The notes: generated by a model not told the origin, from the sequence alone. A stretch of 24,712 bases of DNA from a virus (IMGVR_UViG_2541047887_000002); one strand, 5' to 3'; shown: positions 1 to 20,046, counted from the stretch's first letter. Numbers and translations are program-made.

Positions 1-224
1 GATAATTCGGTTTCACCTGCATCACGCCCGGCAATGCGCACCTGATACCAGCCGTCATTCAGTTTCTGACGAAACGCCGGGAGCTGTGTGGACAACGCCC
101 GGATGGCTTCAGCCCCCGTTTTTACACGAAGGTCGATGCGGCGGCCAAATCGTTGTAAATCCCCGTAAAGGCAGATGCGTGCCATGCCCGGTGACGCCAG
201 AGGGAGTGTGTGCGTCGCTGCCAT
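1..224 (-). CDS. I: Tail tip assembly protein I (lambda gpI-like), N-terminal part; gene continues beyond the window start
   Basis: Minus-strand ATG at 222-224 translates to MAATHTLPLASPGMARICLYGDLQRFGRRIDLRVKTGAEAIRAL..., matching the lambda gpI N-terminus as I recall it. It overlaps the 3' end of K by about 100 nt. Shorter than 60 aa in the window, so absent from the ORF track. Confidence 0.65.
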   Translation of the reverse strand, partial: MAATHTLPLASPGMARICLYGDLQRFGRRIDLRVKTGAEAIRALSTQLPAFRQKLNDGWYQVRIAGRDAGETEL

Positions 225-865
225 TTGTCGGTATACCTCTCTCGTTTGCTCAGTTGTTCAGGAATATGGTGCAACAGCTCACCGTCGCCGCAGTAAATGG
301 CGGCATGATTCGGCACCGATGAACCAAAACAGCACAGCAGCACATCGCCCGGCTGCGCCGCTGACAACGGCACCTGATACAGCCCTGTGGCCTCCAGATT
401 ATCCAGATAGAGATTCTGGCCGTTACACCACCAGTCATCCTCACGATGAAAGTCCGGCATCTCAATCCCCGCCAGATGATAAGCATCCCGGAACAGCGTG
501 TAACAGTCCGTCGCCCCGTGCTCAAAGCGCCGCCCGGTAAGATGCGGCACACAGCGGAATTTATGAATCTCACCCCGGCAGACCAGCCACCAAGGCAAAT
601 CGCTCTGCACCTGCAGCCGCCTGTCAGCCTCACTCAGCCAGGGCAGGCCACCGGGGTGGCTGTGGACCAGCGCCACAATCTCACCCTGCATCTCTGCCCG
701 CAGCCAGTCCTCCGGCGACATCCGGAAATACGCCTCCGGCTCACCGGAGATATTCACGCAGGGAAAATATCTTTCCCCTTCCGGCGTTCTCACCACGAAG
801 CCGCACGACTCCGCTGGCGCACATCGCCGGGCGTGCGCCAGAATCGCTGATTCTGTCTGTGTCAT
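122..865 (-). CDS. K: Tail tip assembly protein K (NlpC/P60 plus JAB/MPN-like), long form of 247 aa
   Basis: ORF 122..907 with the first ATG at 863-865 (MTQTESAILAHARR...). Contains the HSHPGG motif and a C-terminal Cys/His region typical of lambda gpK. Lambda's annotated 199-aa K would start at the internal MSPEDW. Confidence 0.85.
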   Translation of the reverse strand: MTQTESAILAHARRCAPAESCGFVVRTPEGERYFPCVNISGEPEAYFRMSPEDWLRAEMQGEIVALVHSHPGGLPWLSEADRRLQVQSDLPWWLVCRGEIHKFRCVPHLTGRRFEHGATDCYTLFRDAYHLAGIEMPDFHREDDWWCNGQNLYLDNLEATGLYQVPLSAAQPGDVLLCCFGSSVPNHAAIYCGDGELLHHIPEQLSKRERYTDKWQRRTHSLWRHRAWHASAFTGIYNDLAAASTFV

Positions 866-869
866 GGGA

Positions 870-1568
870 TTACTGCGAAAGTTTGTTAATGGAAAGGAAG
901 CCGCCAAAGTTGCCGACGTTATTGCGAAACTTACAGCCGCTCAGGCATTTGCTGCATTTATCCTTCGTGATATCGGACGTCGGCTGGTCATATTCATCCG
1001 CAACCGCCGGACCGTGATAACCGCACTCATCACCGCGATAGGTCCAGGTGCAGGTGTTGGCCAGCATGGTACGTCCCGGAAAAACAGCACCATCCGTTTC
1101 CGTCGGCGTGGACAGTACAAAAGAGGCACTCACCGCGCTCAGTTCGCTGCACTGCTCGATGCGCCAGCGGCTGATCACCTCCTGCTCTGGATCGGCTTCG
1201 CTGTTTCCGTTGACGAAGTTCACCACATCCAGAAAACGGGCGTAAACCTTACGCCTGACCACCGTTCCGCCGACCAGACTCTGCAGGTCTTCCGCCATCC
1301 CGGTGACCATGCCGTGCAGATTAGAGACTTTCAGCGTTGGCCTTGCACTGGCTCCTTTGCCGTTCATCTCAAATCCACTTCCCTGAATGGGATAGGCCTG
1401 ATACTGCCGCCCCTGCCAGGTGACTGGTTCACCTTTTTCGTTCTGCTCATTACAGAAGAAATAACGATCTCCGCCGACCTCTGTCAGATCAATTTCCCAG
1501 AGCACGACCAGCGCGGATTGCTCCGTTTTAGTGCACTCATTGAGTGTTTCCTGCTGTATATCCTGCAT
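870..1568 (-). CDS. L: Minor tail protein L (lambda gpL-like)
   Basis: 232-aa ORF MQDIQQETLNEC...FGGFLSINKLSQ, with the Cys-rich C-terminus characteristic of gpL. Its start overlaps the M stop (TGATG). Confidence 0.9.
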   Translation of the reverse strand: MQDIQQETLNECTKTEQSALVVLWEIDLTEVGGDRYFFCNEQNEKGEPVTWQGRQYQAYPIQGSGFEMNGKGASARPTLKVSNLHGMVTGMAEDLQSLVGGTVVRRKVYARFLDVVNFVNGNSEADPEQEVISRWRIEQCSELSAVSASFVLSTPTETDGAVFPGRTMLANTCTWTYRGDECGYHGPAVADEYDQPTSDITKDKCSKCLSGCKFRNNVGNFGGFLSINKLSQ

Positions 1569-1867
1569 CAGTGAGTGACCTCTTCAAAGGTACAGTTAAA
1601 ATCGGTATACATGGCATTATCCGAAATGCTCCACTCCCTGCAGACAACCCGGACAGTCCTGTTGTGTTTTGGCGGACGCCACAAAAAAGCACGAACCCCG
1701 GCATGACGGGATAAAAAACTGTCCAGCGCGGCACGGGAATATTCATCCGTGACACGAAATACCGGTTTAAACGTTTTCAGATCTGCATTCAGACCACCAG
1801 CCCGTCGCTGTTCATATCCGTCACCGAACTTTACCGTAATAACAGATGGCTTTCGTGTCGTCTCCAT
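1568..1867 (-). CDS. M: Minor tail protein M (lambda gpM-like)
   Basis: ATG at 1865-1867 (METTRKPSVITVKFGDGYEQR...), preceded by a GAGGGG Shine-Dalgarno. The upstream extension in the track would overlap the tape measure stop, so the internal start was chosen. Confidence 0.8.
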   Translation of the reverse strand: METTRKPSVITVKFGDGYEQRRAGGLNADLKTFKPVFRVTDEYSRAALDSFLSRHAGVRAFLWRPPKHNRTVRVVCREWSISDNAMYTDFNCTFEEVTH

Positions 1868-1901
1868 CCCCTCGCGGGGGATCCAGTTAAAAACTTCAGA
1901 C

Positions 1902-4900
1902 TCAGGCACTGCATAATCCTCCGTCCCGACGTGATGACTGCATAATTGACACAACCCTGCTGTCGATCAGATCCACCAGTCCCCTGGCTGAGCGCGCATC
2001 TATCTCGCCATTGCTCCCTTGATTCTGAATGCTGATGTGATACACGGGAGAATAAACAAATCCACCGCCACCATTCACATTTCCAATGGCCCTGACCCCA
2101 AGAGAGCCGTCCGCTGCCCGTGTCAGTGGCATGATTGCTTCAGGCCCGGCCTCGCCCATCAGCCCGGCACCTTTCGCAAAAGCAAAATACGTCGGGGTAT
2201 CCACAATGGTGTTACTGTAAGCACTCAGATTTGCCGATGTATAAACACCACCTTTTGCGTTTGCCACTGCACCGGAAAGCCAGTCGCCGACTGTACCAAG
2301 CCATCCTCCGGCACCGGACATGCTTTTGGAAAGTGACTTCAGCCCGTTAACGATGGCAGCGTTCATCAGAATTTTTGAAACTTCCTGGAGAATTGAACTC
2401 CCCCAGTTTCTCCAGTCCACAACATTTCCGGCCAGTGCATCGGAAATATTTGATACCAGCCCGTCCATAGTGGAAACGACAGCATCTGCCGCCTGCGAAG
2501 CATAATCGGTGGCACTGTCTGCCCAGTTCGTCAGTCCCTCCTGGAGTCCGGCATTCCAGTTACTGCGTAAAGCATCAGCCTTTGCATAATAATCCTGCTG
2601 ATCGCTGAGACGCTCTTCCAGATATTTTTCATTCAGAGATTTTTCCTGTTTCCACAGGGCTTCTTCAATTTCTCCGGCCTGATACTGTCTCAGTAGCTCG
2701 TTATTTTTCTGCTCAAACTCCTGCCGGATGCTCCACATTTCCTGAAGTCGTTCACGCATCCGTGAGCCTTCACCATATCCCAGTAACTGAGCCTCATTTG
2801 ATGCTCTGACACTGGCATTACTGTCCGCCAGACTGCTCTCATACGCAGCAAGCTGCTCACGAATCTTTTTCTGGTCGATGAGTGCTGCATTCTGCAAAAG
2901 CGTTTTTTTCTGCGCTTCTGACAGGGTTGATAATTCGCCCTGGCTGACCTGATATTTCATCTTAGCCAGTTCAGTATTCTGCCCTGCCAGTGCTATTTGC
3001 TCTTTTTGCTGTTTAATCAGTTGCTTATAAGTATCTTCTATTTTTTCCGCTTCGGTCTTTTTATGCGCTTTGGGTTTATTTGCCTGGTTATTTCGCCATG
3101 CATCCAGTGAGTTATTTATATAATTCAGTCTTGCTGTCTGATACGCCTCTCCCACAAAGCCGAGATCATCCGCAGCATAACCCAGGCGGGCACGCTCACG
3201 AGCTTCCCCCTTCAGGCGGGACAGAGCCAGTTCGCGCTCGCTGTTATTCAGTGCGGTCTGCTGTTTATCATCCAGGGTTGCCTGTGGTAGCCGTAACGGT
3301 ACATTCACCAGCCCCTGTCGCTGCTGAAGTAATTCATTACCGAGCCCGAGAAGGCGATTAAACTCGGTATGCTGCCCATTCATGATCAACAGGGACTGAT
3401 ACGCTTTGTTTTGTTCCGCTGCCTGTTGACGGATCAACGCCACCCGTCGCTCCTCCAGCCCGGCAAGCACATCCTGAATGGATTGCGCTTTGCCCTGCAT
3501 TTGAGTGAGGCGAGACTGTTCAACTGCCAGTTGATTTGTTGCTTCTGCAAGCCCTTCTGTGACAGTTTTTACCGACGTCATGTGGTTAATCATAAAACCG
3601 TTATCGGTTGTCCAGCCCGGGTTTGCCAGCACATACTGATAGCCAGCAATTTTTTCCTGTAAGGATTTAATCTTACTTTTCTGCTCGTCAATTAACCTGT
3701 TTTGCTCCTTCAGTGCCTGTCGCGTCTTTTCCTCATTATCTGACGCTTCAGGAAGCGACATTGCCGACGTTTTCTGGCGAATTTCGTCGATTGTTGCGGC
3801 ATACTGTCGTGCAGATTCTCTGGCCTGCTCCTGATTCTGATACATCGTGTACCAGGCCGCAGCCCCCAGCATGACGAGTCCCGGCACACCACCAACCAGC
3901 CCCAGCGCGCCACTTAATAAACGACTCCCCACTGACGTAACATTATTCAGCGTTGTCTGTGCCGCTGTTCTGGCCGCAATATTACGGGTAAGTGACACCT
4001 GGGCAGCTGTCAGCTTCGCTTCTGCTGCGGCCTGCCTTTCGGTACCGCGAGCAGCAACAACCGCCTGTTGCGCACGATAAACCGCCGCACGCGCCCTGGC
4101 GGTTGCTATCTGTGTCCCCCGAAGTTGCACTTCAGCAAGAGCCACTTCGTTTCTGGCTGCAGTAATTAATCCGGCAGTTGCAGATCCAGCAGACGACGCC
4201 ATATTGCCAAAATATCGGGCTACCCCGACGGCAACCAGAGCACCAGCAGCGGTTGCCACGGTGTCAATATTGCCTGCAATACCATTCAGCACACCGGAGA
4301 GCGTCTTCGTCACTCCGCTTGCCTCGTTCGCACCACCAACCCAGGCCATAAAGGCGTTTTCAACTTTGGTTGCAGAGGATGAAACCGTATCAGGCATTGC
4401 TGCATATTCATCACGCAACGCCCCAAGCTGACTAATCAGTGCAGGAACAACCTTATCGGCGGTCAGTTTTCCGTTATCCGCCATGGCCTTCAGATCCTTA
4501 CGGGCAACCCCCATTCCCGCAGCCAGCGCACGAATAACACGATCGCCGTTCTCATTCACCGAGTTAAACTCTTCACCGCGCAGCACTCCCTGCGCCAGTG
4601 CCTGACTGAACTGCGTGATCACCGAACTGGCTTCTGCTGTACTGGCACCGGATAATTTCAGGCCCGTGGAGATCGCCTCGGTGACTTTCAGTACCTCCTC
4701 AGAACTGTAACCATACTCCCGCATGGAAGCTGCAGAACGGGCAAAAAGGCTGGCGTTATCAGAAAACGCCGTCCCCGTTCTCTGGCTGATCGCCATTAAT
4801 TCACGCTGTGATGACTGAAAATCATCACTGGACTGTGAGGCCTGCTTCAGACGGGCATTTACTGAATTCCACTCATCGGCGAGAGAAATAAGATGACCGG

Positions 4901-5147
4901 TAGCAAAAGCCCCGGCAAATGCCCCCGCCATGTTCAGTGCCGAAGATTTAGCTGTATTTATCTGATCCGTCACTTCTGCCAGTGCACGCCGCATTTCACG
5001 GGATGCAGCAGCGGACTGTCGGCCTCCGTTCTGCATGGTACGGTAGTAATCCTGCCCCATACGCGAAGCCCGGGAGATCTCTGACTGGAATGACCGGGAA
5101 TTTGCCGAGATTTTAATAATCAGTTCACGTAATGTCGCCACACTCAT
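1902..5147 (-). CDS. H: Tail tape measure protein (1081 aa)
   Basis: Very long ORF with a coiled-coil, Ala/Gln-rich middle and a Gly-rich C-terminal part. It sits between GT and M as in lambda and HK97. GGAGA Shine-Dalgarno upstream of ATG 5145-5147. Confidence 0.9.
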   Translation of the reverse strand: MSVATLRELIIKISANSRSFQSEISRASRMGQDYYRTMQNGGRQSAAASREMRRALAEVTDQINTAKSSALNMAGAFAGAFATGHLISLADEWNSVNARLKQASQSSDDFQSSQRELMAISQRTGTAFSDNASLFARSAASMREYGYSSEEVLKVTEAISTGLKLSGASTAEASSVITQFSQALAQGVLRGEEFNSVNENGDRVIRALAAGMGVARKDLKAMADNGKLTADKVVPALISQLGALRDEYAAMPDTVSSSATKVENAFMAWVGGANEASGVTKTLSGVLNGIAGNIDTVATAAGALVAVGVARYFGNMASSAGSATAGLITAARNEVALAEVQLRGTQIATARARAAVYRAQQAVVAARGTERQAAAEAKLTAAQVSLTRNIAARTAAQTTLNNVTSVGSRLLSGALGLVGGVPGLVMLGAAAWYTMYQNQEQARESARQYAATIDEIRQKTSAMSLPEASDNEEKTRQALKEQNRLIDEQKSKIKSLQEKIAGYQYVLANPGWTTDNGFMINHMTSVKTVTEGLAEATNQLAVEQSRLTQMQGKAQSIQDVLAGLEERRVALIRQQAAEQNKAYQSLLIMNGQHTEFNRLLGLGNELLQQRQGLVNVPLRLPQATLDDKQQTALNNSERELALSRLKGEARERARLGYAADDLGFVGEAYQTARLNYINNSLDAWRNNQANKPKAHKKTEAEKIEDTYKQLIKQQKEQIALAGQNTELAKMKYQVSQGELSTLSEAQKKTLLQNAALIDQKKIREQLAAYESSLADSNASVRASNEAQLLGYGEGSRMRERLQEMWSIRQEFEQKNNELLRQYQAGEIEEALWKQEKSLNEKYLEERLSDQQDYYAKADALRSNWNAGLQEGLTNWADSATDYASQAADAVVSTMDGLVSNISDALAGNVVDWRNWGSSILQEVSKILMNAAIVNGLKSLSKSMSGAGGWLGTVGDWLSGAVANAKGGVYTSANLSAYSNTIVDTPTYFAFAKGAGLMGEAGPEAIMPLTRAADGSLGVRAIGNVNGGGGFVYSPVYHISIQNQGSNGEIDARSARGLVDLIDSRVVSIMQSSRRDGGLCSA

Positions 5148-5157
5148 TCTCCGGACG

Positions 5158-5179
5158 AAAAAAAACCGCCGAAGCGGTT
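5158..5179 (-). terminator. Intrinsic terminator-like hairpin between GT and the tape measure gene
   Basis: Minus strand reads AACCGC-UUCG-GCGGUU followed by a U-tract, immediately upstream of the tape measure Shine-Dalgarno. Confidence 0.4.
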
Positions 5180-5187
5180 ATGTTGAC

Positions 5188-5876
5188 TCACTGAGACACT
5201 ATTAAAAGCGCGTTTTCCAGTCCAGCAAATGGATCTGATACGCCTTCTGTCTGCTCCTTCTCCCACTGAAGAAGCGCATCATTCAGTGGCACTTTGACCC
5301 CCTGCGCACCGTAAACAGCTGAAACAATCTGGGCAGCCCGGATATCAGCCCGTTCGTCCCCCAGCGGGCTGAACCTGTCAAATTCTGCCCACATCATGAT
5401 TTCTGATGCGGACATTTCCCGGCGTAACTCTGACAATGTGCGCCCCATCCTGAGCGCCAGCATCATCAGAAAACGCATCCCCGGAAGCGCTACTTTTTTT
5501 TAACCTCGCCGGCATCACTGATTAGTTCCAGAGACTGCCGAAGAAGCCGCGCATGCACCGGGCCATACACGGCAATCACCTGTTCACGATCATCCTCTGA
5601 AAATACAGGTTGCAGTCCGGTATCACACAGAACATCGATGAACAGTTCAACATCCGCTTCCAGATTTCGGCGGGCGCGCTCCGCAACGGATAACGGTGTC
5701 TCATCATCTTTTGCTTTAACGATCTCCTGCCAGCGCAACCAGGCTTCTGCAGAAGGTTCCCGTAATACAACCGTTGCCCCTTCCCATTCAGGCACATCAA
5801 CAGTTTTATGGCGAAACCCCGACATCGTTGCCAGTGCCAGATTACGGATATTTTTAGTCATCACATCTATCCTCAT
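5188..5876 (-). CDS. GT: Tail assembly chaperone GT, made by a programmed -1 ribosomal frameshift
   Basis: Minus-strand heptamer A AAA AAG (plus 5493-5499) sits just before the G stop TAG. The -1 frame is open from the slip site to the stop at 5188 and encodes ...KKVALPGMRFLMMLALR.... Confidence 0.75.
5490..5876 (-). CDS. G: Tail assembly chaperone G
   Basis: 128-aa acidic protein ending GEVKKK-stop. Its start overlaps the V stop (TAATG). Its 3' end carries the slippery heptamer. Confidence 0.85.
   Translation of the reverse strand: MRIDVMTKNIRNLALATMSGFRHKTVDVPEWEGATVVLREPSAEAWLRWQEIVKAKDDETPLSVAERARRNLEADVELFIDVLCDTGLQPVFSEDDREQVIAVYGPVHARLLRQSLELISDAGEVKKK
5493..5499 (-). promoter_or_regulatory. 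-1 frameshift slippery heptamer A AAA AAG for G to GT
   Basis: Read directly from the sequence. The conserved G/GT frameshift of long-tailed phages is established knowledge. Confidence 0.7.
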
Positions 5877-6580
5877 TAACTGACGGTAACAGTGCAGGAA
5901 GTAGAGGTCACTTTGTTAACCGGGCTTGCTGAATCAGAAATCTCGCAGGTATATGCACCCGCATCACCGGATACTGCCGATGCCTTACTGAACGTTGCCG
6001 CCGTCTGTCCGGAAACAGGAGAACCACCTTTCTTCCAGACATAAGAATAAGGCGGCACACCACCCGCAGCCTCAACCGCCATTTCAAGTTTCGATCCGGA
6101 AGCAACCCGCAGCGTGCTTTTTAAATCGACCTTCACTTTCAGCGGCTCTGTCGTCAGCACAGGTTTACCTTTCAGGCGCAGAGAAAACGTTGCAGCCACA
6201 ACACCATTGGTTCCTGCAGACCAGGTATGCTGACGCACCTCTGCCATAAAGGTAAATCCGTTGCCTGACGGAAAAATAACTTTAAAGCCATACGTGGTGT
6301 CATTGTCATAGGCACTGCGCAACGCGTTCTGGGCAGCATTGAGGTAAAAGTTGCCTGACATGGAAATCTCTGAAGCAGCACCAAGGCCGTTAATATTTTC
6401 CTGCTCAACAGAACACAGCGTGGTGACATCAATATCCTGCTTTTGTCCTGCAGTAAACTGCACCTCTTTGATTGTACAGCTCAGGCCAAGATAGCTGGCA
6501 GAATCCAGGGTTTCTGCTGTTACCGGTGCAGACGAAATCATAATTTTCGTCAGTTGCGAACGCTCAAAATTAGAGGACAT
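5876..6580 (-). CDS. V: Major tail protein with C-terminal Ig-like domain
   Basis: ATG at 6578-6580 (MSSNFERSQ...) with an AGGAGA Shine-Dalgarno. The C-terminal segment GGVPPYSYVWKKGGSPVSG...AGAYTCEISD resembles a Big_2/Ig-like domain. Confidence 0.85.
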   Translation of the reverse strand: MSSNFERSQLTKIMISSAPVTAETLDSASYLGLSCTIKEVQFTAGQKQDIDVTTLCSVEQENINGLGAASEISMSGNFYLNAAQNALRSAYDNDTTYGFKVIFPSGNGFTFMAEVRQHTWSAGTNGVVAATFSLRLKGKPVLTTEPLKVKVDLKSTLRVASGSKLEMAVEAAGGVPPYSYVWKKGGSPVSGQTAATFSKASAVSGDAGAYTCEISDSASPVNKVTSTSCTVTVS

Positions 6581-6596
6581 ACTCGTCTCCTGAAAA

Positions 6597-6618
6597 TAAA
6601 AAACCCGCCAGCGGCGGG
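6597..6618 (-). terminator. Intrinsic terminator-like hairpin upstream of the major tail gene
   Basis: Minus strand reads CCCGCCGCUGGCGGG followed by UUUUUAUUUU, in the gap between the tail completion gene and V. Confidence 0.45.
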
Positions 6619-6639
6619 TGGGTAAAATCATTAACGACC

Positions 6640-6984
6640 TCAGGCTATTACCTGAAATTCAAGCGTGGCTCTGCTCAGACGGGAGTCAGGATCATACCCC
6701 TGCGTTTTAGAAATAACGGAGGGTGCCAGTTTCCTTACTGCATCAAGCGCCTGCTCACGAATATCATCTGCGTCATCAGGTACTGTCGCCCAGACATCGA
6801 TCTGCACGGTAATTCTGGATTCAGCCTGCCCATCAAGCACATCAGATGCCGTGTCAGACACCACAGAAAACACCAGCCACGGCGGAGATACCGCAGGCTT
6901 TCCCTCCGTCAGCGGGACCACATAAGGATAAACCTGTCCTCCGGCCAGCTGAGACAACAGGGAATACAGTGTGCCCTCCCTCAT
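6640..6984 (-). CDS. Tail completion/terminator protein (DUF3168-like); family assignment tentative
   Basis: 114-aa ORF in the conserved position just upstream of the major tail gene. Overlaps the next gene by 4 nt. Confidence 0.7.
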   Translation of the reverse strand: MREGTLYSLLSQLAGGQVYPYVVPLTEGKPAVSPPWLVFSVVSDTASDVLDGQAESRITVQIDVWATVPDDADDIREQALDAVRKLAPSVISKTQGYDPDSRLSRATLEFQVIA

Positions 6985-7430
6985 TTACTTAAGACCTCAT
7001 CAATAGCCTGATTCATTCGCTGTATGGCAACCTGCGCCGCCAGCTCCTCTGTCGTATCGAAAGCCGGGCGAATGAATGGATGCGCGGGCATGTTTATCGT
7101 TCCCAGCTCCACAAAGCGCCAGTAAAATGCATTTCGGGGATCGCTGGCTTTCATGCTGTTATCACTGTTTCCGGTTCGCAGGTTCCGTCCGCGAATGTGG
7201 ACACCCGAGATAATTTCCCCCCGACGCTTTGAACGCTGAGTGAGAACAACCACATTTTTCTTCAGTTTCCCGGTTCGCTCCGGCGCACGTTCAACAACTG
7301 CATCCCGCATAACTTCAGCACCGGCACGGGTGGCATCGCGCAGAACCTTATTGTTTTCTGCCCTGCTGAGCGTCTCCAGATCCCGTGCAATATCCGCCAG
7401 GCCGGAAAAATCAAGACTGAAATCCATCAC
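6981..7430 (-). CDS. HK97 gp10-family head-tail joining protein
   Basis: 149-aa ORF MMDFSLDFSGLADIARDLE..., translationally coupled to its neighbours. The position and start motif fit the HK97 gp10 family. Confidence 0.75.
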   Translation of the reverse strand: MMDFSLDFSGLADIARDLETLSRAENNKVLRDATRAGAEVMRDAVVERAPERTGKLKKNVVVLTQRSKRRGEIISGVHIRGRNLRTGNSDNSMKASDPRNAFYWRFVELGTINMPAHPFIRPAFDTTEELAAQVAIQRMNQAIDEVLSK

Positions 7431-7765
7431 ACATTCCCCTTCAGGCTGCAGAGTATTTCAAGCCGGGTAGCGCGTGCATCCGGTATTGGTGGACCTTCTA
7501 TACCCAGAATGGCCCCTTTAAATGCACCGGTCAGCACTTTCAGACGTGAAGTCGCTGTCACATCGCGCCGGAATCTCATCCAGACTCTGACCGTAGCCTG
7601 AGCGGTTTCTGCTCCGCCTGAGATTATCTCCCTCCCGCTGATACCCTTAACTTCTGCCCATACGGTAGCTCCCTCCGTCACCGTCTCCACCGGATGCCCT
7701 GACGGAGAGCGGGCGGTGGTGACATTCAGAATAATTACGCGATCACGTAATCTGCCCGCCTGCAT
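7427..7765 (-). CDS. Head-tail adaptor / head closure protein
   Basis: 112-aa ORF with synteny between the connector and gp10-like genes. Overlaps the next gene by 4 nt. Confidence 0.75.
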   Translation of the reverse strand: MQAGRLRDRVIILNVTTARSPSGHPVETVTEGATVWAEVKGISGREIISGGAETAQATVRVWMRFRRDVTATSRLKVLTGAFKGAILGIEGPPIPDARATRLEILCSLKGNV

Positions 7766-7773
7766 GTCTCCTC

Positions 7774-8091
7774 CTACAAAGGAATAAAACGATAAGGCTC
7801 CAGCAGAGAAGAAAAACCAAACGGGACTGGTGCCTTGCTGACATCTGAGGAATTTTCCCGGTTTTCGTACCAGTGCCCGACCAGCAACATGAGCGCCAGC
7901 AAAACATCATCAGCTATAAGCACCCCTTCAGGATCACCTTCCGGCACCGTCTCCTCATAAAGCTTACGGTTGATAAAATTTTCTGCCTTGCGGCAGGCAG
8001 CCCGGAAATACAGCATCAGTAACTCATCATCAGTTGCATCATCTGTATCAATACGGCACTGCGCCCTGAGTTTTTCCACTATTGCTGCCAT
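7774..8091 (-). CDS. gp6-like head-tail connector protein
   Basis: ATG at 8089-8091 (MAAIVEKLRAQCRIDTDDATDDELL...) with an AGGAG Shine-Dalgarno. The longer track ORF would overlap the capsid gene, so this internal start was chosen. Confidence 0.75.
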   Translation of the reverse strand: MAAIVEKLRAQCRIDTDDATDDELLMLYFRAACRKAENFINRKLYEETVPEGDPEGVLIADDVLLALMLLVGHWYENRENSSDVSKAPVPFGFSSLLEPYRFIPL

Positions 8092-8124
8092 CAGAAACTC
8101 CTGCCCGCAACACTGTGCGGGCAT

Positions 8125-8146
8125 AAAAAAACCGCGTCGGCGCGGT
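8125..8146 (-). terminator. Intrinsic terminator downstream of the major capsid gene
   Basis: Minus strand reads ACCGCGCCGACGCGGU followed by UUUUUU. A second hairpin (GCCCGCA...UGCGGGC) lies at 8102-8121. Confidence 0.5.
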
Positions 8147-8167
8147 CTGTAACTGAACAACGAGTGG

Positions 8168-9385
8168 TTATTTGCCAGTGAGCGCCTTGATGGCTGCCAC
8201 ATCTTCCAGCACACAGTCAAAACGATGGAAAGCCAGAAATGCCACCTGATCAAACTCAGCATAACGCTCAACCAGACGTTTCAGTTCCATATAAGTAACG
8301 CGGCGAATGATAAAGCGGTTGAAATCCCCCAGGAAAATGAATTTTTTTCCGGTACCAATCCCGTCAATAGCCTGATCAATAACATAAGGGATCCCCAGCA
8401 CAGTAGCCGGCGTACCGCCTGCAATATCCGGCAGCCATAACGGGCGTTTCTGCCCATCCTCCATCTCTTCAATAGTCTGCAATGTGGCATCATTGAATGC
8501 CCAGCGGTATTTCGGCCCACCACGATATGCCGGATCAATGGCATGTTTCAGGGCATTCATTTCTTTCCAGGTGAAAGCGGCAGAGGCTGCAGTCTGGATG
8601 GTTCCCGTCACCGACGCTGCCAGCCCTTTTGGCTGTAACGGTGATCCCGTTCCGGTCCCCTGAACCAGATATTTTGCCTCTCCACGACCAATACGCTGGG
8701 CAATACGGTTTGCCAGATAAGATTCAATATCCACCCCACTGTCCTGGAGCAGCTCATTGGACACACGAATTATTTTTGATGACAGCTTTTTAGCCCCCAG
8801 AATAGCGGTCCCGAACGTCACATCCTGTTCCGTTGCGGCTGTATTTTCCGCCAGCAGTTCGCCCTCTTCAGTCGTGCCATCAGACGTTGACCAGGTGATA
8901 TCCTGCCCGGTTGATGTGGTCAGAAGTTGCGCCACACTGGCAATCCCGCCATAAGCCTTCATGGTGTCAATGATTTTGTTACGCATCTGCGTGGGCACCG
9001 TATATCCGCCCTGAGAATCCGTTGTTACACTCTGAGCCCGCAGTTCACGCATCAGATTACGCTCTTCAGCATTCAGTTCTGCAAATCCGGCACGCAGAAA
9101 ACGGTTAAATGCCGCAGCGCGCTTCTCTTCCACCGCCTTTTTCCCGTTCTCCGCCTCATTATTCTGGCGCTCTTCCGGCCCGGACTCATCCACATATGCC
9201 TGATCCTGACGGCGCAACTCTTCTTCACGGGCGATTTGCTCATCCAGCGCATCCAGCTCAGCTTTCGCCCTGTTCCACTCTGCCCGTTGCTCATCAGTCC
9301 ATGCGTTATCACCAATTTTTTCATGCAGTGCACGCATATCCTTTGCAATGGTGTTTCGTTTTTGCTTCATCTCATGAAGTTTCAT
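8168..9385 (-). CDS. Major capsid protein, HK97 family, with N-terminal delta/scaffold domain
   Basis: 405-aa ORF with a coiled-coil N-terminal about 100 aa and a C-terminal HK97-fold region. Follows the prohead protease as in HK97. Confidence 0.9.
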   Translation of the reverse strand: MKLHEMKQKRNTIAKDMRALHEKIGDNAWTDEQRAEWNRAKAELDALDEQIAREEELRRQDQAYVDESGPEERQNNEAENGKKAVEEKRAAAFNRFLRAGFAELNAEERNLMRELRAQSVTTDSQGGYTVPTQMRNKIIDTMKAYGGIASVAQLLTTSTGQDITWSTSDGTTEEGELLAENTAATEQDVTFGTAILGAKKLSSKIIRVSNELLQDSGVDIESYLANRIAQRIGRGEAKYLVQGTGTGSPLQPKGLAASVTGTIQTAASAAFTWKEMNALKHAIDPAYRGGPKYRWAFNDATLQTIEEMEDGQKRPLWLPDIAGGTPATVLGIPYVIDQAIDGIGTGKKFIFLGDFNRFIIRRVTYMELKRLVERYAEFDQVAFLAFHRFDCVLEDVAAIKALTGK

Positions 9386-9399
9386 CGTCAGTAGTATCC

Positions 9400-9999
9400 T
9401 TATGCATTAAGAAGGGTCAAAAGACGCTCACGCGCCATTCGTTCGTTAACAGCTTTCTTCAGCGCACCACTCGCCCGCGCTTCCTGCCAGGCTTTCATTG
9501 AGCGGACACCAGAGTCTGCGTCCTGATAGGCCGGATATGTCACCGGGCTGACGTCATACAGACGAGAAATGCGCGTGATTTCCCGGATAACAATCCCCTC
9601 GTCGTCTTCATACCAGCTCTCTCCGTCACGGGCGACACGAAACGCGAACGAGGACTGATTAATGTCACCACGCAACATTGGAGACAGCACCAGGTCACAA
9701 ATAGTCGGAGTATCCGGTGCAACAATGTCATAACGTAAACCGCGTTCATCCACCGACAATGACAACGTGCCGGCAGAACTTCGTCCGAGAATGAAATTAG
9801 GATCATGATTAAACAAGCCACGTACATCATCATTCAGTACATCATCAAAAGCCCCCGGCTTGATGATTTCACGAAATCCCCACAGAGGTTCTGAACGACT
9901 GTTAAATACCGAGCCATACCCCAGAATGTGGGTCGGGGCATTATCATATTGTTCCGCCCGCACCTCCCCGCTGTAACAGCGCGTTTCACGGTCATTCAT
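9400..9999 (-). CDS. Prohead maturation protease, HK97 family
   Basis: 199-aa ORF between portal and capsid genes. Its start overlaps the portal stop (ATGAATGA). Confidence 0.85.
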   Translation of the reverse strand: MNDRETRCYSGEVRAEQYDNAPTHILGYGSVFNSRSEPLWGFREIIKPGAFDDVLNDDVRGLFNHDPNFILGRSSAGTLSLSVDERGLRYDIVAPDTPTICDLVLSPMLRGDINQSSFAFRVARDGESWYEDDEGIVIREITRISRLYDVSPVTYPAYQDADSGVRSMKAWQEARASGALKKAVNERMARERLLTLLNA

Positions 10000-11218
10000 C
10001 GTTCTTTTCCTCTTTGCCTTTCGTATCTTTAAAGTTATTCAACGGATTTGCTGCATTTACGCTGACCAGCATTTCATCCAGACCGTCAACCGGGTTCATA
10101 TCCTCAAATGCCCTGGCTTCATTCCGACTCATCCAGCCATCTGTAATGGCAAAGTGATAGAACTGCGCACGCTCCTGTGGGGTCCCACGGAGCAACCCCG
10201 TGAGGTTGAAACGAACGTAATACCCGGCAGCCCGTTCTGTACGGGTAAACAGGCGACGGTTAAGCTCCTGCTCCCAGTTCGCAACCCAGGGCATCATCGT
10301 GTAGCGAACAAACTGAATCGCCTGCTGCGTAATATTCGAAAATGTGGCTTTTTCCAGGTCATTAATCATGTGCGCCGGGACATTAAAAATCCCGGCAATC
10401 ATCGACCGGTTCAGCTTGGTCATATCAATGATCTGAGCATCCACCGGAGAAACTGTCAGAGCGCGGTAATCCAGTTGCGCAGGCAGCAACATGGTTTTAT
10501 TTTCCTGGCTGCGAAGCGCTGTCACCGCCCGCTGCCACATATTTTTAAGCCTGCCCCAGCTTTGTTCGTTCAGTTCATTTTTCACAGAAATAATACCGGC
10601 AGGACGGGCATTACCGTTAAAAAAGGCGCTGGTATACTGCTGGCCACTCATTCCCATACCAATGGTTTCAGCATGCTGCATGATCGGGCTCAGTCCCATT
10701 TTCTGATTGTTTCCCAGCGCCCTGATATGGATCATGTCGTCCGGACTTACCGCAAATGCACCCTCTTCGTTATACACCCCGTAAGTATGACGCCCACCGG
10801 TGTTAAGTAACGTGGTTTCCCATGGCATACAGCATTCAAGGCTGGTAACCTCTCCACGACGATTACGTTTTACCCACGTATAACCATTGCCCCACCCCAG
10901 CACATGACGCTGCTTCAGTTCCCGCCACTTATAGCTGGTCTGCCAGGCATTAGGTTCATCATGAACGAGCCAGAACAACGGATGATCGCGTGCCGGCTGA
11001 ACATGCTCATTCGTTTTTCGCATCACATGCAGGGGCATCTGAGCCACACTGGATGAAATAACATAAATACAGGCATAGACAGCAGCCAGCTTCATGGATG
11101 TTTCCGGACTGACATACACATCCCGGGCAAAAATATTATCCGTCTCAGCGGCCTCTCCGGTTACCGGAACCGAGGGATTTTCCAGAGGCTCACTGCGAAA
11201 CAGAGCATCAAGAAGCAT
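9992..11218 (-). CDS. Portal protein, HK97 family
   Basis: 408-aa ORF downstream of the large terminase, with typical portal size and an acidic C-terminal tail. Confidence 0.9.
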   Translation of the reverse strand: MLLDALFRSEPLENPSVPVTGEAAETDNIFARDVYVSPETSMKLAAVYACIYVISSSVAQMPLHVMRKTNEHVQPARDHPLFWLVHDEPNAWQTSYKWRELKQRHVLGWGNGYTWVKRNRRGEVTSLECCMPWETTLLNTGGRHTYGVYNEEGAFAVSPDDMIHIRALGNNQKMGLSPIMQHAETIGMGMSGQQYTSAFFNGNARPAGIISVKNELNEQSWGRLKNMWQRAVTALRSQENKTMLLPAQLDYRALTVSPVDAQIIDMTKLNRSMIAGIFNVPAHMINDLEKATFSNITQQAIQFVRYTMMPWVANWEQELNRRLFTRTERAAGYYVRFNLTGLLRGTPQERAQFYHFAITDGWMSRNEARAFEDMNPVDGLDEMLVSVNAANPLNNFKDTKGKEEKNDE

Positions 11219-11348
11219 GTTTTCTCCTCATGGACACCACCAGTGCATAAAGCAGCAACAAACAGCCCGACAGCATCAGAGACGCTGGCAGACCTGCATA
11301 CAGATAAACGCCAGCAGTGAGCAAACCGAAACCGATCAGCCCGGTCAT
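11208..11348 (-). CDS. Hypothetical small hydrophobic protein (46 aa), possible membrane peptide
   Basis: Hand-translated minus-strand ORF MTGLIGFGLLTAGVYLYAGLPASLMLSGCLLLLYALVVSMRRKHAS, between the large terminase and portal genes and overlapping the portal ATG. No clear Shine-Dalgarno. Confidence 0.25.
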   Translation of the reverse strand: MTGLIGFGLLTAGVYLYAGLPASLMLSGCLLLLYALVVSMRRKHAS

Positions 11349-11365
11349 ATCAGTAATAAGCTGTT

Positions 11366-13123
11366 TCACAGAATTAACAGGTCCTCATCAGGATCAAGCG
11401 TGGACAGAAAGTCATTCACGCCCCCTCCATTTACCAGAAAGCGGCTCATGGCTGTAAAAAGCGCAACAGGGCCGTCGATTTTGGCTTCCGGCGTGGATTT
11501 ATTCGGGAAGATGTTGTCGTTTTTGTCCGGTTTTACAGTAACGTTAGACATCATCCAGTTCATGACCGGATGATTGCTGTGATGGAAACGCCCGGCATAA
11601 ACCAGTGATTCCGTTTCCTTCATGGCCTCTGACAGATTGCGGACCGTCTGCGGAACCTCCACCAGCGGTATCCCTTCTTCAGCCAGTGCCAGGCTGAACT
11701 GCATTGCGCTCCACGGGTCAAATCCCAGTTCCCTGAGGTTTTCACCGCCAATCCATTCCAGTAAGTCACTTTTTATCTGAGCATGATCGATAACATCACC
11801 ATCCGTCAGGATGAGCTTATCCATCTCCGCCCACTTCCGGTAAAGTTCTGCCTGCTGCCGCGAGCATCGTTCCAGCCGTCCTTCCGGAAGCCAGAATTTA
11901 AAATCAGCATGAACATGTCCGTTATCGGTTCGCCAGAGTTTTGCCGCCGCACAGATATCAATCTTATGAGCAAGGTCGACGCCGACCCACATGGGATATG
12001 TTTTCAGCTCATGTTGTGGAGCAATGTATTCGCACTTCTCCCACTTAATCATATCCATCCAGGCAGATTCGGCAGTGACCCACACATTCATGTGTTTGGT
12101 AAAAAAATTCACCCGCGCAGAGACCTGCTCCTTCGCTTTTTTCGCCAGACGACGCAGATCATCCCAGCGTTTACAGATGCCCAGGCCAGGATTCGCTTTC
12201 TGCCAGACCGTTTCATCAAACGGATCATCTCCCTCATCAAGCGTGTAAATGATCGCAAAGTAAGAGTCGTCTTTTACAGCGCCCTCCACGTCGCTGTTAT
12301 AGCCTCGCAATACCTTGATGGCGTAATCACGCTGCTCGTAACAAATCCCTTCCTTGTTAAAGCCAGCCGTGGTGATACCAAATAACAGGGACTGCAGACG
12401 GGCACCGGTTGCCGTTTCCAGAACGTCCCACACGTCGCGGGTTTTATGTGCATGCAGCTCATCAATAATGGCGCAGTGGATGTTCAGACCGTCCAGGTTG
12501 TTTGCATCCGAGGAAAGCGGTTCAAATTTTGATGCGCTCTGCTCCTGGTAAATCGCCAGCTTGTTGAAATCAAACAACCGCCCGAGTGTCGACCGGGCTT
12601 TTCTGACCATATTTTTGGCGTCTTCAAACACGATTCTGGCCTGGTCACGCGTGGTTGCGGCTGAATACACCTCAGCTCCGCCTTCACTATCTGCCCCCGT
12701 CATATACAGGCCGATACCCGATGACAGTGTTGATTTTGCGTTTTTACGGGCGACTTCGTTGTACGCCGTCCGGAACCGGCGCACCATCACCGGACGTCCG
12801 CTGCCATCGCTGCGCATGACAACTTCCCCGGTTTCTTCATTGACCAGCGGAATGACAAAACCAAAAATATTAATGAGGATAAATACATGCCAGTCCATCA
12901 ACTCAATGGGCTGGCCTGCCAGTACCCCTTTTACATGAGGCACAAATTTGTAGAAATTCAGGATGTGCTGCGCACGGGGTTCACTGAAATAAATCCCCCG
13001 CTTTTCGCCGTACTTCAGATCATCAAGAAAACGCTGGCAGGCCAGGCGGACAAATTCGCCAGCAACAATTTCTCCTGCAACAACACGTTCGGCGTAGCGG
13101 ATCCCGTCAGCCACTTTTGCCAT
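11366..13123 (-). CDS. Terminase large subunit
   Basis: 585-aa ORF with an ATPase-like N-terminal region and nuclease-like C-terminal region. Its start overlaps the small terminase stop (ATGA). Confidence 0.9.
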   Translation of the reverse strand: MAKVADGIRYAERVVAGEIVAGEFVRLACQRFLDDLKYGEKRGIYFSEPRAQHILNFYKFVPHVKGVLAGQPIELMDWHVFILINIFGFVIPLVNEETGEVVMRSDGSGRPVMVRRFRTAYNEVARKNAKSTLSSGIGLYMTGADSEGGAEVYSAATTRDQARIVFEDAKNMVRKARSTLGRLFDFNKLAIYQEQSASKFEPLSSDANNLDGLNIHCAIIDELHAHKTRDVWDVLETATGARLQSLLFGITTAGFNKEGICYEQRDYAIKVLRGYNSDVEGAVKDDSYFAIIYTLDEGDDPFDETVWQKANPGLGICKRWDDLRRLAKKAKEQVSARVNFFTKHMNVWVTAESAWMDMIKWEKCEYIAPQHELKTYPMWVGVDLAHKIDICAAAKLWRTDNGHVHADFKFWLPEGRLERCSRQQAELYRKWAEMDKLILTDGDVIDHAQIKSDLLEWIGGENLRELGFDPWSAMQFSLALAEEGIPLVEVPQTVRNLSEAMKETESLVYAGRFHHSNHPVMNWMMSNVTVKPDKNDNIFPNKSTPEAKIDGPVALFTAMSRFLVNGGGVNDFLSTLDPDEDLLIL

Positions 13124-13605
13124 CAGTCTCTCGCTTTTAAAAGCTCTGCCAGCGGATCAACATTATCCGGTCCGGCGGTATTTACTTTTGCCCGGCTTGC
13201 CGGTGACATACCAAATTCTGCAAGCATCGCCCGGATCCGCTTCCAGGCATCCGCTTTCATCGCAGCAGCCGGGTGTGCCTTAATCAGCACATCACCGTTC
13301 TGCGTTTCCGAGCGGTAGGTGTACCCCTCAACATCGAGTGTTTCGCAGTGATGCCGGTATTCGGTATAGGCTTCCACCAGTAGCTCAAGCGCACGCGCAT
13401 CAAGCTGAGAAATGATCCCTTCCGCATTCAGCTCTTCCGCCATTCGCCTGAACCAGTACTTCCCCTGCGCCCCTAAATGTTGCGGAATTTTAGGGAGACC
13501 TTTTTCATCCTTTTTAGCGGTTTTTTTGAGGTCTTTAACTGGCCGCTTTGAGGGGTTGCCTCGTATCAAATGCAGGCGTGGCGGGATTTTCGGGGGTCCA
13601 GACAT
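13123..13605 (-). CDS. Terminase small subunit (P27-family like)
   Basis: 160-aa basic ORF immediately upstream of the large terminase and translationally coupled to it. Confidence 0.8.
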   Translation of the reverse strand: MSGPPKIPPRLHLIRGNPSKRPVKDLKKTAKKDEKGLPKIPQHLGAQGKYWFRRMAEELNAEGIISQLDARALELLVEAYTEYRHHCETLDVEGYTYRSETQNGDVLIKAHPAAAMKADAWKRIRAMLAEFGMSPASRAKVNTAGPDNVDPLAELLKARD

Positions 13606-18230: not shown

Positions 18231-18258
18231 GCCCGTATCCATATGCGGGCTTTTTTTT
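18231..18258 (+). terminator. Plus-strand intrinsic terminator-like hairpin upstream of the holin
   Basis: 8-bp stem GCCCGUAU / AUAUGCGGGC followed by eight U on the plus strand. Confidence 0.4.
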
Positions 18259-18264
18259 GCATGT

Positions 18265-18294
18265 AAAAAGGCCCCAACACATGTGCGTGGGGCC
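18265..18294 (-). terminator. Minus-strand intrinsic terminator-like hairpin
   Basis: Minus strand reads GGCCCCACGCACAUGUGUUGGGGCC followed by UUUUU. Confidence 0.45.
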
Positions 18295-18494
18295 TGAGAG
18301 TATACATGGTTTCAGTCAACTGCATGGTGCCGGGTGCCTCCCGGTGAATTCAGTACCAGCACCTGAATCCGCGATTATCCCATATACCTACTCGCTGATT
18401 GCCCCTCCGCACAGGGGGATTCACCATGCCAGTTTCTTTTAACAAACTCCCCGCAAAACAGACAACTGTCAACCGTCTGAATTGTGAGACATTT

Positions 18495-18520
18495 AAAAAA
18501 AAGGCCCGCAAAAGCGAGCC
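18495..18520 (-). terminator. Intrinsic terminator after the tRNA cluster
   Basis: Minus strand reads GGCUCGC-UUUU-GCGGGCC followed by eight U, about 15 nt after the 3' end of the last tRNA. Confidence 0.55.
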
Positions 18521-18534
18521 GGGAAAAATAAGTC

Positions 18535-18611
18535 TGGCGCGTTGTACTGGATTCGAACCAGTGACCGATTGCTTAGAAGGCAATTGCTCTGTCCGGTTGA
18601 GCTAACAACGC
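18535..18611 (-). tRNA. tRNA-Arg (anticodon UCU)
   Basis: Hand-folded cloverleaf: acceptor GCGUUGU/ACAACGC, D-stem GCUC/GAGC, anticodon stem AUUGC/GCAAU with loop CUUCUAA, T-loop UUCGAAU, encoded 3' CCA. Confidence 0.75.
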
Positions 18612-18624
18612 AGGGTACAGATAA

Positions 18625-18701
18625 TGGACCGCCATCGAGGACTCGAACCCCGCGCAACCAGCTTCGAAGGCTGGTGCTCTATCCTGATGAGCTAATGGCG
18701 G
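18625..18701 (-). tRNA. tRNA-Arg (anticodon UCG)
   Basis: Hand-folded cloverleaf: acceptor CCGCCAU/AUGGCGG, D-stem GCUC/GAGC, anticodon stem CCAGC/GCUGG with loop CUUCGAA, T-loop UUCGAGU, encoded CCA. The 5' end is uncertain by 1 nt. Confidence 0.65.
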
Positions 18702-18708
18702 TATGTGA

Positions 18709-18784
18709 TGGTGGCCCTTGCTGGATTTGAACCAGCGACCTGGCGATTATGAGTCGCTCGCTCTCACCTCTGAGCTAAAGGGCC
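18709..18784 (-). tRNA. tRNA with anticodon CAU, most likely tRNA-Ile2 (ileX/ileZ-like); elongator Met not excluded
   Basis: Sequence GGCCCUUUAGCUCAG...GACUCAUAAUCGC...GGUUCAAAUCCAGCAAGGGCCACCA closely resembles E. coli ileX as I recall it. Anticodon loop CUCAUAA. Confidence 0.7.
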
Positions 18785-18904: not shown

Positions 18905-18934
18905 AAAAAAACCCGCTTGTGGGCGGGTTTTGTT
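18905..18934 (-). terminator. Bidirectional intrinsic terminator, candidate tR' of the late promoter
   Basis: Stem AAACCCGC / GCGGGUUU flanked by an A-tract and a U-rich tract, about 60-90 nt downstream of the Q-like stop codon. Confidence 0.55.
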
Positions 18935-18994: not shown

Positions 18995-19684
18995 TCAATC
19001 TACTTTTGCAACACTTTGCTTTGAAAATGCCGCCTTTTGTTTTGAACGTGTTCTCATTACAAACAATAAAGCCTCACTATCCAGTCGTTGAAAAATGTGT
19101 TTCATTGCAACCCAGTGACGAGTAAATGTTTTGGACCAGTTTTTAGTTGTCACTCCCGCCAGTAATGCCAGCTCCTGGTATTCATAACCTTCCCCACCAA
19201 AAAGTTCTGCTTTTACTGCCTGCGCCGCCAGCCAGATTAATTTTTTCAGGCGTTCCTGCGTTTTCCCTGCAATTTTTCTGGTACCGGATTGAGTATTAAA
19301 TTCATTCCACGCCCACTGTGTTATCGCGATCTGATATTCCCAACAAATACTCCCGCCGTAACACCACAACAACCAGGCTTTATGATGCTCTTCAAGAGAC
19401 AGCAAAGCCCGCCGCCATGATGATGTCGAAAACTCAACCGGGCTGACCAGGGCAATTGATGAGCCATTCGCCAGTGATTGTTTTCCCGGGATTGGTGGAT
19501 TATCCCGCGTTATCATTTTTCCAGTCACTTCATCGCGGTACCGGATTTTTTTTCGCCTGTAACGCCCTGTATCGAACATGGCATTCTCCTGCCAGGCTTC
19601 AAGCTGACCTTTTGTTGCCCCACTCAAATCAGCGGTGGCGATAATGAGCTGCTCACGCACAAACTGTAAATACTGGTTATTCAT
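18995..19684 (-). CDS. Putative late-gene antiterminator (Q-like), assigned by position
   Basis: 229-aa ORF with ATG at 19682-19684 overlapping the RusA stop (ATGA). It lies directly upstream of the terminator, tRNAs and lysis genes. No clear zinc-finger motif, so the identity is tentative. Confidence 0.5.
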   Translation of the reverse strand: MNNQYLQFVREQLIIATADLSGATKGQLEAWQENAMFDTGRYRRKKIRYRDEVTGKMITRDNPPIPGKQSLANGSSIALVSPVEFSTSSWRRALLSLEEHHKAWLLWCYGGSICWEYQIAITQWAWNEFNTQSGTRKIAGKTQERLKKLIWLAAQAVKAELFGGEGYEYQELALLAGVTTKNWSKTFTRHWVAMKHIFQRLDSEALLFVMRTRSKQKAAFSKQSVAKVD

Positions 19685-20046
19685 GCGCACTCCAGTTCTG
19701 TGATTTTTATCCCCAGCCGCCCACCAGGAACGAGCTGACCGCGCACAATATTGATTTCATCAAACTGCTCGTCGTCTATAAGTAGTCCGGCATGCGTCAG
19801 CGCATCCAGTGGTGCCTTCAGGATATTGTCCAGGTCACGACGGCGCTTATCCGGTGGCTCTGCAATAATCTTTATCGCCAGCCTTCCGGACAGGTTTAAT
19901 TTCAGCCGCTGCTGGCGAACAATTAGCGCCACATCACGGCGATAACGCTTTCCGGCTTCCGAGATGAAATACGTATTGCCATGACGTCGCCAGTAGGTAT
20001 TCACCGTCGGCGGGTAAGGCAAAACAAATTCTATGCGTTCAGTCAT
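19681..20046 (-). CDS. rusA: RusA Holliday junction resolvase
   Basis: 121-aa ORF with PYPPTVNTYWRR and DKRRRDLDNILKAPLDALTHAGLLIDD motifs, matching RusA (compare DRRRRDLDNLQKAAFDAL in E. coli RusA). Confidence 0.9.
   Translation of the reverse strand: MTERIEFVLPYPPTVNTYWRRHGNTYFISEAGKRYRRDVALIVRQQRLKLNLSGRLAIKIIAEPPDKRRRDLDNILKAPLDALTHAGLLIDDEQFDEINIVRGQLVPGGRLGIKITELECA

Follow-up and report, generated by a model that had tools for sequence, protein, structure and literature searches.

What are hairpins shaped like terminators doing inside an operon that has to be read from end to end? The question is raised by a stretch of 24,712 nucleotides (nt) of DNA (IMGVR_UViG_2541047887_000002; hereafter "the window", i.e. 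the whole stretch analysed), which comes from a lambdoid prophage of Escherichia coli and carries HK97-type virion genes on its minus strand. In the late structural operon of this prophage three stem-loops, designated here HP1, HP2 and HP3 and each followed by a run of U, stand after the major capsid gene, before the major tail (tube) gene and before the tape-measure gene, respectively. We consider that they are probably Rho-independent (intrinsic) terminators placed at the borders of the late-operon modules, which RNA polymerase modified by the antiterminator Q would read through; we give this reading a probability of about 0.6. Its grounds are observed: the presence, strand, position, geometry, conservation and covariation of the hairpins, and a Q gene upstream. 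Termination, read-through and a physiological role are what we infer from them.

The initial annotation of the window had pointed to hairpins with U-tracts at these three places within the late operon, and we do find them there, on the coding (minus) strand (coordinates in Table 1). The stems of HP1, HP2 and HP3 are of 8, 7 and 6 bp with 5, 6 and 4 GC pairs, and enclose loops of 4, 3 and 4 nt, respectively. The description of the loops as UUCG-type applies to HP3 only, those of HP1 and HP2 being CCGA and GCU. Directly 3' of the stems come the tracts U7, U6AU4 and U8. The stems begin 19, 20 and 8 nt past the stop codon of the preceding gene (the capsid gene in the case of HP1), HP3 being the nearest to its stop codon. 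The structural operon contains only three intergenic gaps above 14 nt (76, 59 and ~40–46 nt) and each of them holds one hairpin. HP2 is followed by a Shine-Dalgarno sequence AGGAG (6587–6591) and the start codon (6578–6580), HP3 by GGAG (5149–5152); in the centroid fold the Shine-Dalgarno site is left unpaired.

Folding energies, the first check that had been suggested, give a mixed answer. The RNAfold values of HP1, HP2 and HP3 (-11.2, -12.6 and -8.5 kcal/mol) are moderate and comparable to those of the tRNA-cluster terminator and of the hok terminator of the same window, but against local shuffles the energies stand out weakly when taken alone (z = -1.3 to -2.0), since short windows rich in GC readily refold. 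The local-shuffle z being uninformative for hairpins of 16–20 nt, we used a composite motif instead. A permissive hairpin scan returned ~130 matches and was uninformative as well, so the criteria were tightened to a perfect stem of at least 6 bp with at least 4 GC pairs, a loop of 3–5 nt, and 6 T or more among the 8 nt that follow. We searched the 13.6-kb structural region (1–13605 of the window) for this motif and, as a control, 300 dinucleotide-preserving shuffles of it. On the coding strand there are exactly three matches, HP1, HP2 and HP3, for 0.15 expected (standard deviation 0.38), and none of the 300 shuffles reaches three. On the antisense strand of the same region there is no match.

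The hairpin cores are near-invariant among 80 close relatives taken from IMG/VR: only 5 of the 80 loci differ, each by one base at a stem's outer end. The T runs (5158–5165, 6598–6603 and 8125–8131) vary by plus or minus 1–2 T among near-identical relatives, with stems essentially fixed, which looks like homopolymer slippage.

A more diverse set was obtained by scanning species-representative genomes with the alignment of the major tail protein. It comprises 51 prophages (from Escherichia relatives, Klebsiella, Serratia, Providencia, Morganella, Yersinia, Pantoea and Burkholderia), whose major tail proteins are 29–79% identical to that of the window; with HK97, a Klebsiella phage, mEp390 and a Burkholderia phage it makes 55 loci. 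The junction of the tail-terminator and major tail genes holds a hairpin with U-tract in 53/53 loci, the one after the capsid gene in 36/47, and that of the chaperone T and tape-measure genes in 39/51 (~76%). The frequency is 25% (13/53) between the major tail and chaperone G genes and 0–7% at all other junctions, for 4% in random 78-nt windows. When distinct sequences are counted, a compact GC hairpin with a T-tract lies just 5' of the major tail Shine-Dalgarno sequence in 52 of 53 junctions, and all 44 post-capsid sequences have a GC hairpin. Disparities nevertheless appear between the tracts: the share of sequences with at least 6 T in the following 8 nt is 98% ahead of the major tail gene, 84% ahead of the tape-measure gene and 43% after the capsid gene, versus 6% for background GC hairpins in these loci. 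The post-capsid element behaves as a hairpin that does not need to terminate, and looks like a pure stabiliser. The two others behave as full terminators, unless the U-tract matters by itself: since the strong U-tract is near-invariant there, the pattern argues for real termination or for a role specific to the U-tract, not for a bare protective hairpin.

The junction before the major tail gene is also constant in its geometry. Among 49 relatives the stem begins 16–22 nt past the stop codon in most cases (median 18 nt), and in 49 sequences its end lies 16–25 nt from the start codon (median 21 nt). The spacer of 16–22 nt (loci L082–L135; 6620–6639 in the window) is C/A-rich, with 14% G versus 28% overall, and the C-rich arm of the stem is almost always the 5' one.

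Each of these junction sequences folds alone into the hairpin, with energies of -7 to -15.5 kcal/mol. In a MAFFT alignment of the junctions the stem registers were shifted and RNAalifold undercounted the pairs; the sequences were therefore re-aligned with a covariance model (R1) made from the pre-major-tail sites. Ten distinct inner stems then appear, 89% of the cells are paired, and double-sided changes affect all 5 pairs of the model. In this alignment, which is fitted to R1 and thus favours the structure, the double-sided changes amount to 97 cells versus 31.9 ± 4.5 after shuffling (0/500), and the covariation score is 0.689, where shuffled alignments give 0.17 and slid partners no more than 0.21. 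As a signature at the level of RNA, 22 of 51 of the pre-major-tail hairpins are closed by UNCG tetraloops, 7 of 51 having TTCG. R1 also matches HP3 (E 0.0016) and other sites before tape-measure genes.

The comparison with HK97 and its relatives, which had also been proposed at the outset, is decisive. The GenBank record of HK97 (AF069529) carries the feature "terminator, putative" at 5192–5213 (after gp5), at 6692–6719 (gp11/gp12) and at 8398–8422, the last one following the moron gene 15 directly before the tape-measure gene (gene H in the record). These are the same three syntenic junctions, on the same strand, with the same build of hairpin plus U-tract and with homologous flanking proteins (the major tail protein of the window is 73% identical to HK97 gp12); the core of the HP2 stem, CCCGCC/GGCGGG, is identical in HK97. 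Judged by synteny and sequence, HP1, HP2 and HP3 are positional orthologues of these putative terminators. The record of mEp390 has a "rho-independent terminator" after the portal and capsid genes. There are differences. The HK97 record lists two more putative terminators that have no counterpart in the window, one after gp12 and one where the portal gene ends. The HK97 hairpin before the tape-measure gene follows an inserted gene, whereas the corresponding slot of the window is empty, with a gap of 40–46 nt. The post-capsid U-tract of HK97 is short (UUUU). The HK97 late-operon annotation reportedly goes with Juhala et al. 2000 (J Mol Biol 299:27). The idea has been present in it since 2000, and our finding is sound but ordinary and does not overturn the current understanding; what it adds of mild interest is that the hairpin before the major tail gene is conserved almost universally.

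The genes around the hairpins were called from PHROG matches and from the annotation of phage PhiR49_2; they are listed in Table 1 in the direction of transcription, and the tail-tip genes come after the tape-measure gene. The stretch 4800–8600 is 100% identical to phages vB_EcoS-611R1 and vB_EcoS-689R5 and 99.9% to PhiR49_2, and 119 complete E. coli genomes match at least 80% of the whole window at one place. The tape-measure gene probably starts at GTG 5139–5141 and not at ATG 5145–5147, because GGAG is 7 nt from the former versus 1 nt from the latter, and because the PhiR49_2 coding sequence (CDS) is the shorter one.

Table 1. Hairpins, terminators and genes of the window, in the order of transcription
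Feature	Coordinates	Strand	Sequence, match or energy
Terminator after hok/mok	21458-21475	-	AACCCGC-UUCG-GCGGGUU; -13.2 to -13.8 kcal/mol
Q-like late antiterminator gene	18995-19690	-	PHROG 304, E 2e-107
tRNA-cluster terminator	18503-18520		-12.6 kcal/mol
STnc100-family small RNA (sRNA), PR'-leader-like	18259-18458	-	Rfam RF02076, 140 bits, full-length match
Large terminase gene	11366-13123	-	
Portal gene	9992-11218	-	
Protease gene	9400-9999	-	
Major capsid protein gene, upstream of HP1	8168-9385	-	PHROG 10, E 2e-103
HP1, after the major capsid gene	stem 8129-8148, U7 8125-8131	-	AGACCGCG-CCGA-CGCGGUUU
Second hairpin, after the HP1 U-tract	8102-8123	-	UGCCCGCA-CAGUGU-UGCGGGCA; 8 bp, no U-tract
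Head-tail adaptor Ad1 gene, downstream of HP1	7774-8091	-	PHROG 40; PhiR49_2 CDS 318 nt
Head closure Hc1 gene	7427-7765	-	
Neck protein Ne1 gene	6981-7430	-	
Tail terminator (HK97 gp11-like) gene, upstream of HP2	6640-6984	-	PHROG 347, 78
HP2, between the tail-terminator and major tail genes	stem 6603-6619, then UUUUUUAUUUU down to 6593	-	ACCCGCC-GCU-GGCGGGU
Major tail (tube) protein gene, downstream of HP2	5876-6580	-	PHROG 158, E 8e-111
Tail assembly chaperone genes G (5490-5876) and T (5188-5478), upstream of HP3	5188-5876	-	PHROG 344, 337, 14766
HP3, between the chaperone G/T and tape-measure genes	stem 5164-5179, U8 5158-5165	-	AACCGC-UUCG-GCGGUU
Tape-measure gene, downstream of HP3	1902-5141	-	PHROG 339, E = 0; PhiR49_2 CDS 3240 nt

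The structural genes lie downstream of a Q-like gene and of an STnc100-family leader, a context that makes plausible the antitermination by Q which the initial annotation assumed. The STnc100 sRNA ends with a strong hairpin (18269–18295, -18.5 kcal/mol) that is likely to be the terminator targeted by Q; this prophage probably has its PR' leader and tR' in the STnc100 region. Three tRNAs (tRNA-Met, tRNA-Arg and tRNA-Arg; 18535–18784, minus strand) follow the Q-like gene. Two other hairpins were noticed in this region: one of 10 bp between Q and tRNA-Met (18908–18931), with T-rich tails on both strands, looks bidirectional, and a plus-strand terminator-like hairpin with T8 (18231–18250) adjoins the 3' end of STnc100 and is convergent with it. 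Farther upstream lies a hok/sok cassette (hok/mok, PHROG 251; sok, Rfam RF01794).

The second hairpin of the capsid-adaptor gap, which is absent in HK97, abuts the Shine-Dalgarno sequence GGAG (8098–8101) of the head-tail adaptor gene. The 91-nt fold that includes it has z = -3.4, and it is kept, with compensatory changes (e.g. CCUGCG/CGCAGG), in relatives of the same capsid/adaptor type. It might damp or insulate the translation of the low-copy adaptor protein.

If HP1, HP2 and HP3 are terminators, the borders that they mark would separate the head, the connector and neck, the tail tube with its chaperones, and the tape measure with the tail tip. During lytic growth RNA polymerase modified by Q at PR' would pass all of them, as is expected from lambdoid biology, the Q-like gene and the PR'-leader-like sRNA upstream. 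Unmodified polymerase, which could stem from leaky prophage transcription, from promoters inside the operon or in morons, or from transcription of the adjoining host DNA, would halt at the hairpins; this is suggested by their terminator anatomy, by the spacing from the stop codons and by the conserved U-tracts. A spacing of 16–22 nt would put the stem just beyond the span of the terminating ribosome. The silent tail genes would thereby be insulated and inserted morons would be supplied with a ready terminator. On read-through transcripts the hairpins may stay as stable 3' caps once the U/A-rich tract has been cut endonucleolytically, most plausibly after the capsid gene.

Several points weigh against this reading. 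No measurement of transcript ends, half-lives or read-through was found in the accessible literature for this prophage or for HK97; the text of the Term-seq paper on enterohaemorrhagic E. coli discusses tR' only (PMC7547250), and tail or capsid loci are not mentioned in the supplements on Hfq-CRAC (crosslinking and analysis of cDNA). The stems are short (6–8 bp), that of HP3 having only -8.5 kcal/mol, so that termination may be partial. A terminator directly upstream of the gene for the most abundant tail protein is counter-intuitive if it ever attenuates, and simple attenuation for protein ratios fits HP2 badly, as it stands upstream of the abundant tube gene and downstream of the low-copy neck genes. 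In the Burkholderia phage vB_E253 (loci L085 and L138), which has a post-capsid and a pre-major-tail hairpin and none before the tape-measure gene, no Q-like protein is recognised by the annotation or by PHROGs; if Q is indeed absent, an efficient terminator before its major tail gene would need another kind of antitermination. Phage lambda, which is Q-dependent too, has neither gap nor hairpin at U/V and T/H. Thus such punctuation is not required for a Q-driven late operon.

The initial annotation saw in the hairpins a means of setting segment stability, an interpretation that our results support in part. We regard as unlikely, while still worth weighing seriously, that they are pure mRNA punctuation of this kind. 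There would be no useful termination: RNase E would cut the A/U-rich tracts of the Q-driven transcript, each hairpin would shield either the upstream segment at its 3' end or the downstream segment at its 5' end, and the resulting half-lives would determine how much capsid, neck, tube and tape-measure protein is made relative to one another. This accounts well for the post-capsid site, where the hairpin is constant (44/44), the strong U-tract is not (43%), and the hairpin thus outweighs the terminator tail. Each module also closes with a hairpin, the major tail gene and the G/T block being bracketed by HP2 and HP3. There are precedents: the malE-malF repetitive extragenic palindromic (REP) hairpins and the papBA intercistronic hairpin stabilise the segments upstream of them, and 5' stem-loops stabilise E. 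coli mRNAs. A protective hairpin alone, however, needs no U-tract, and the 98% and 84% found at the two other sites, versus the 6% background, are left without a reason. The distance of 16–22 nt between stop codon and stem is typical of working terminators, and HP2 would stabilise the low-copy neck segment, for which there is no obvious need.

We hold equally tentatively a further reading, in which the hairpin before the major tail gene goes beyond a read-through terminator and forms with its U-tract and the Shine-Dalgarno sequence an obligatory cis-element for expression of the tail tube. It could act as a checkpoint that admits only antiterminated polymerase and, after processing, as a 5' stabiliser and a standby-site enhancer for the yield of tube protein. 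The suggestion comes from its presence in 53/53 HK97-type tail modules, from E. coli to Burkholderia, with a spacing fixed to both the stop and the start codon.

It seems improbable that the hairpins belong to a translation-initiation module, in which the stem would insulate the Shine-Dalgarno sequence from upstream structure and ribosomes and the U-tract would be a site for S1 or a standby site, so that translation of the major tail and tape-measure genes would start efficiently and independently. The tightly constrained distance of 16–25 nt between stem and start codon would be explained, as would the fact that the hairpin stays beside the major tail gene despite upstream inserts (L092, L093 and L099). 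The match of R1 to the pre-tape-measure sites, the common layout of spacer, hairpin, U-tract, Shine-Dalgarno sequence and start codon, and the unpaired Shine-Dalgarno site in the centroid fold are also in line with it. But the U-tract of HP1 is not beside a Shine-Dalgarno sequence, the second hairpin lying between them, and the tape-measure protein is of low copy and does not need an enhancer. The lambda genes V and H are expressed without such a module. In L099 (a prophage of Enterobacter intestinihominis, 4170–4990) an open reading frame (ORF) of 176 codons is inserted between the tail-terminator and major tail genes, flanked by the near-identical terminators CCCGC-UCCG-GCGGG U6 and CCCGC-UUCG-GCGGG U5. 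The copy after the tail-terminator gene keeps its hairpin and its U6 ~130 nt from the next start codon, with no adjoining Shine-Dalgarno sequence. The arrangement looks like an insertion at, or a duplication of, a resident terminator.

Inserts of this kind bring up a role at the DNA level, the palindromes serving as exchange borders for mosaic modules and morons and the RNA hairpin being a by-product; we consider this very improbable. In its favour, 10 of the 80 close relatives change their capsid module exactly at HP1: homology is lost at 8120–8139, the relatives carrying a different capsid gene, and what they have in common with the window runs only from GCGGUUUUUUAUG (GCGGTTTTTTATG) onward. 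The alternative capsid gene has its stop codon inside the loop of its own hairpin (loci L051, L060, L061, L069, L077 and L079). The duplicated hairpins around the L099 insertion also fit an exchange border, as does the position of HP3, which sits exactly in the classical, first-described moron slot, that of HK97 gene 15. Morons carry their own promoter and terminator, and gene 15 lies between the chaperone and tape-measure genes (PMC3594210). Among our loci the gap from chaperone T to the tape-measure gene ranges from 12 to 3473 nt; it measures either tens of nt or, where genes have been inserted, 0.3–3.5 kb, and most of the loci of the latter kind keep a hairpin before the tape-measure gene. 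On the other side, the T-tract is present on one strand only, and the enrichment in UNCG loops and the compensatory changes point to RNA, as a recombination hotspot would conserve sequence and not pairing. Moreover, the largest group of breakpoints (19 of the 80 relatives, near 7770) is at the Ad1/Hc1 border, where there is no hairpin.

Finally, that the hairpins are chance GC-rich palindromes without function, for which only the modest local-shuffle z (-1.3 to -2.0) could speak, is refuted by the absence of three strict matches in 300 shuffles, by the location of all three hairpins in the sole sizeable gaps and by the 53/53 occupancy, with covariation, of the pre-major-tail junction.

Other candidates were rejected. 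An RNase III processing site of the T7 or lambda type needs a duplex of ~20 bp or more and the stems are of 6–8 bp. REP sequences or bacterial interspersed mosaic elements (BIMEs) are dispersed imperfect palindromes of ~35 nt without U-tract; the hairpins are of 16–20 nt, mutually different and followed by U-tracts, and have no Rfam match. An sRNA gene was discarded as there is neither an Rfam match nor a promoter at the three sites.

Should the hairpins work as the read-through terminators that we favour, they would show how a 20-kb operon that is read through in lytic growth stays silent and modular in the prophage, and would account for the clustering of morons and mosaic joints at certain gene borders. 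The PhiR49_2 record, 99.9% identical to the window and listing no regulatory feature in this region, could gain several. The locus also offers a test set for Q-type antitermination, with three natural terminators of graded strength and a pre-major-tail hairpin found across families.

The terminator after hok had been noted as nearly the same as HP3. The likeness of the hairpins themselves is real, i.e. a common core CCGC-UUCG-GCGG and a U-tract, but it does not extend to a relationship, the sequences on either side being unrelated. In Yersinia prophages an exact copy of the hok-type hairpin, AACCCGC-UUCG-GCGGGUU, stands in front of the tape-measure gene. A common origin of HP3 and the hok terminator was rejected, only the generic hairpin being shared and C(UUCG)G recurring at unrelated sites; as far as the sequences go, the likeness is a convergence on the generic C(UUCG)G terminator design.

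Three other known arrangements can be compared with the hairpins of the window. HP3 resembles the terminator half of a moron cassette, in a slot of 40–46 nt where no ORF or promoter-like site was found and where HP3 is the sole content; HP1 and HP2, in contrast, are not at usual moron sites. The T-phi terminator of T7, after the capsid gene 10, raises the mRNA of an abundant protein relative to the downstream genes by partial termination or 3' protection, as do the malE-malF REP and papBA hairpins. All of these, like HP1, are hairpins standing right after the gene of an abundant protein, but T-phi acts on T7 RNA polymerase and REP is a dispersed repeat family without U-tracts, and these precedents leave unexplained a hairpin that stands before such a gene, as HP2 does. 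The third is the late operon of lambda, whose late-protein ratios are said to be due mainly to translation initiation (Sampson, Hendrix et al. 1988). It is likewise polycistronic and Q-antiterminated; in it gene D is followed by a hairpin with U-tract, and the capsid gene E by a C(UUCG)G hairpin. At the tail junctions it differs, U and V being separated by 7 nt and T and H overlapping, with no hairpin at either. This comparison indicates that a hairpin in front of the major tail gene typifies tail modules of the HK97 type and not Q-dependent late operons in general.

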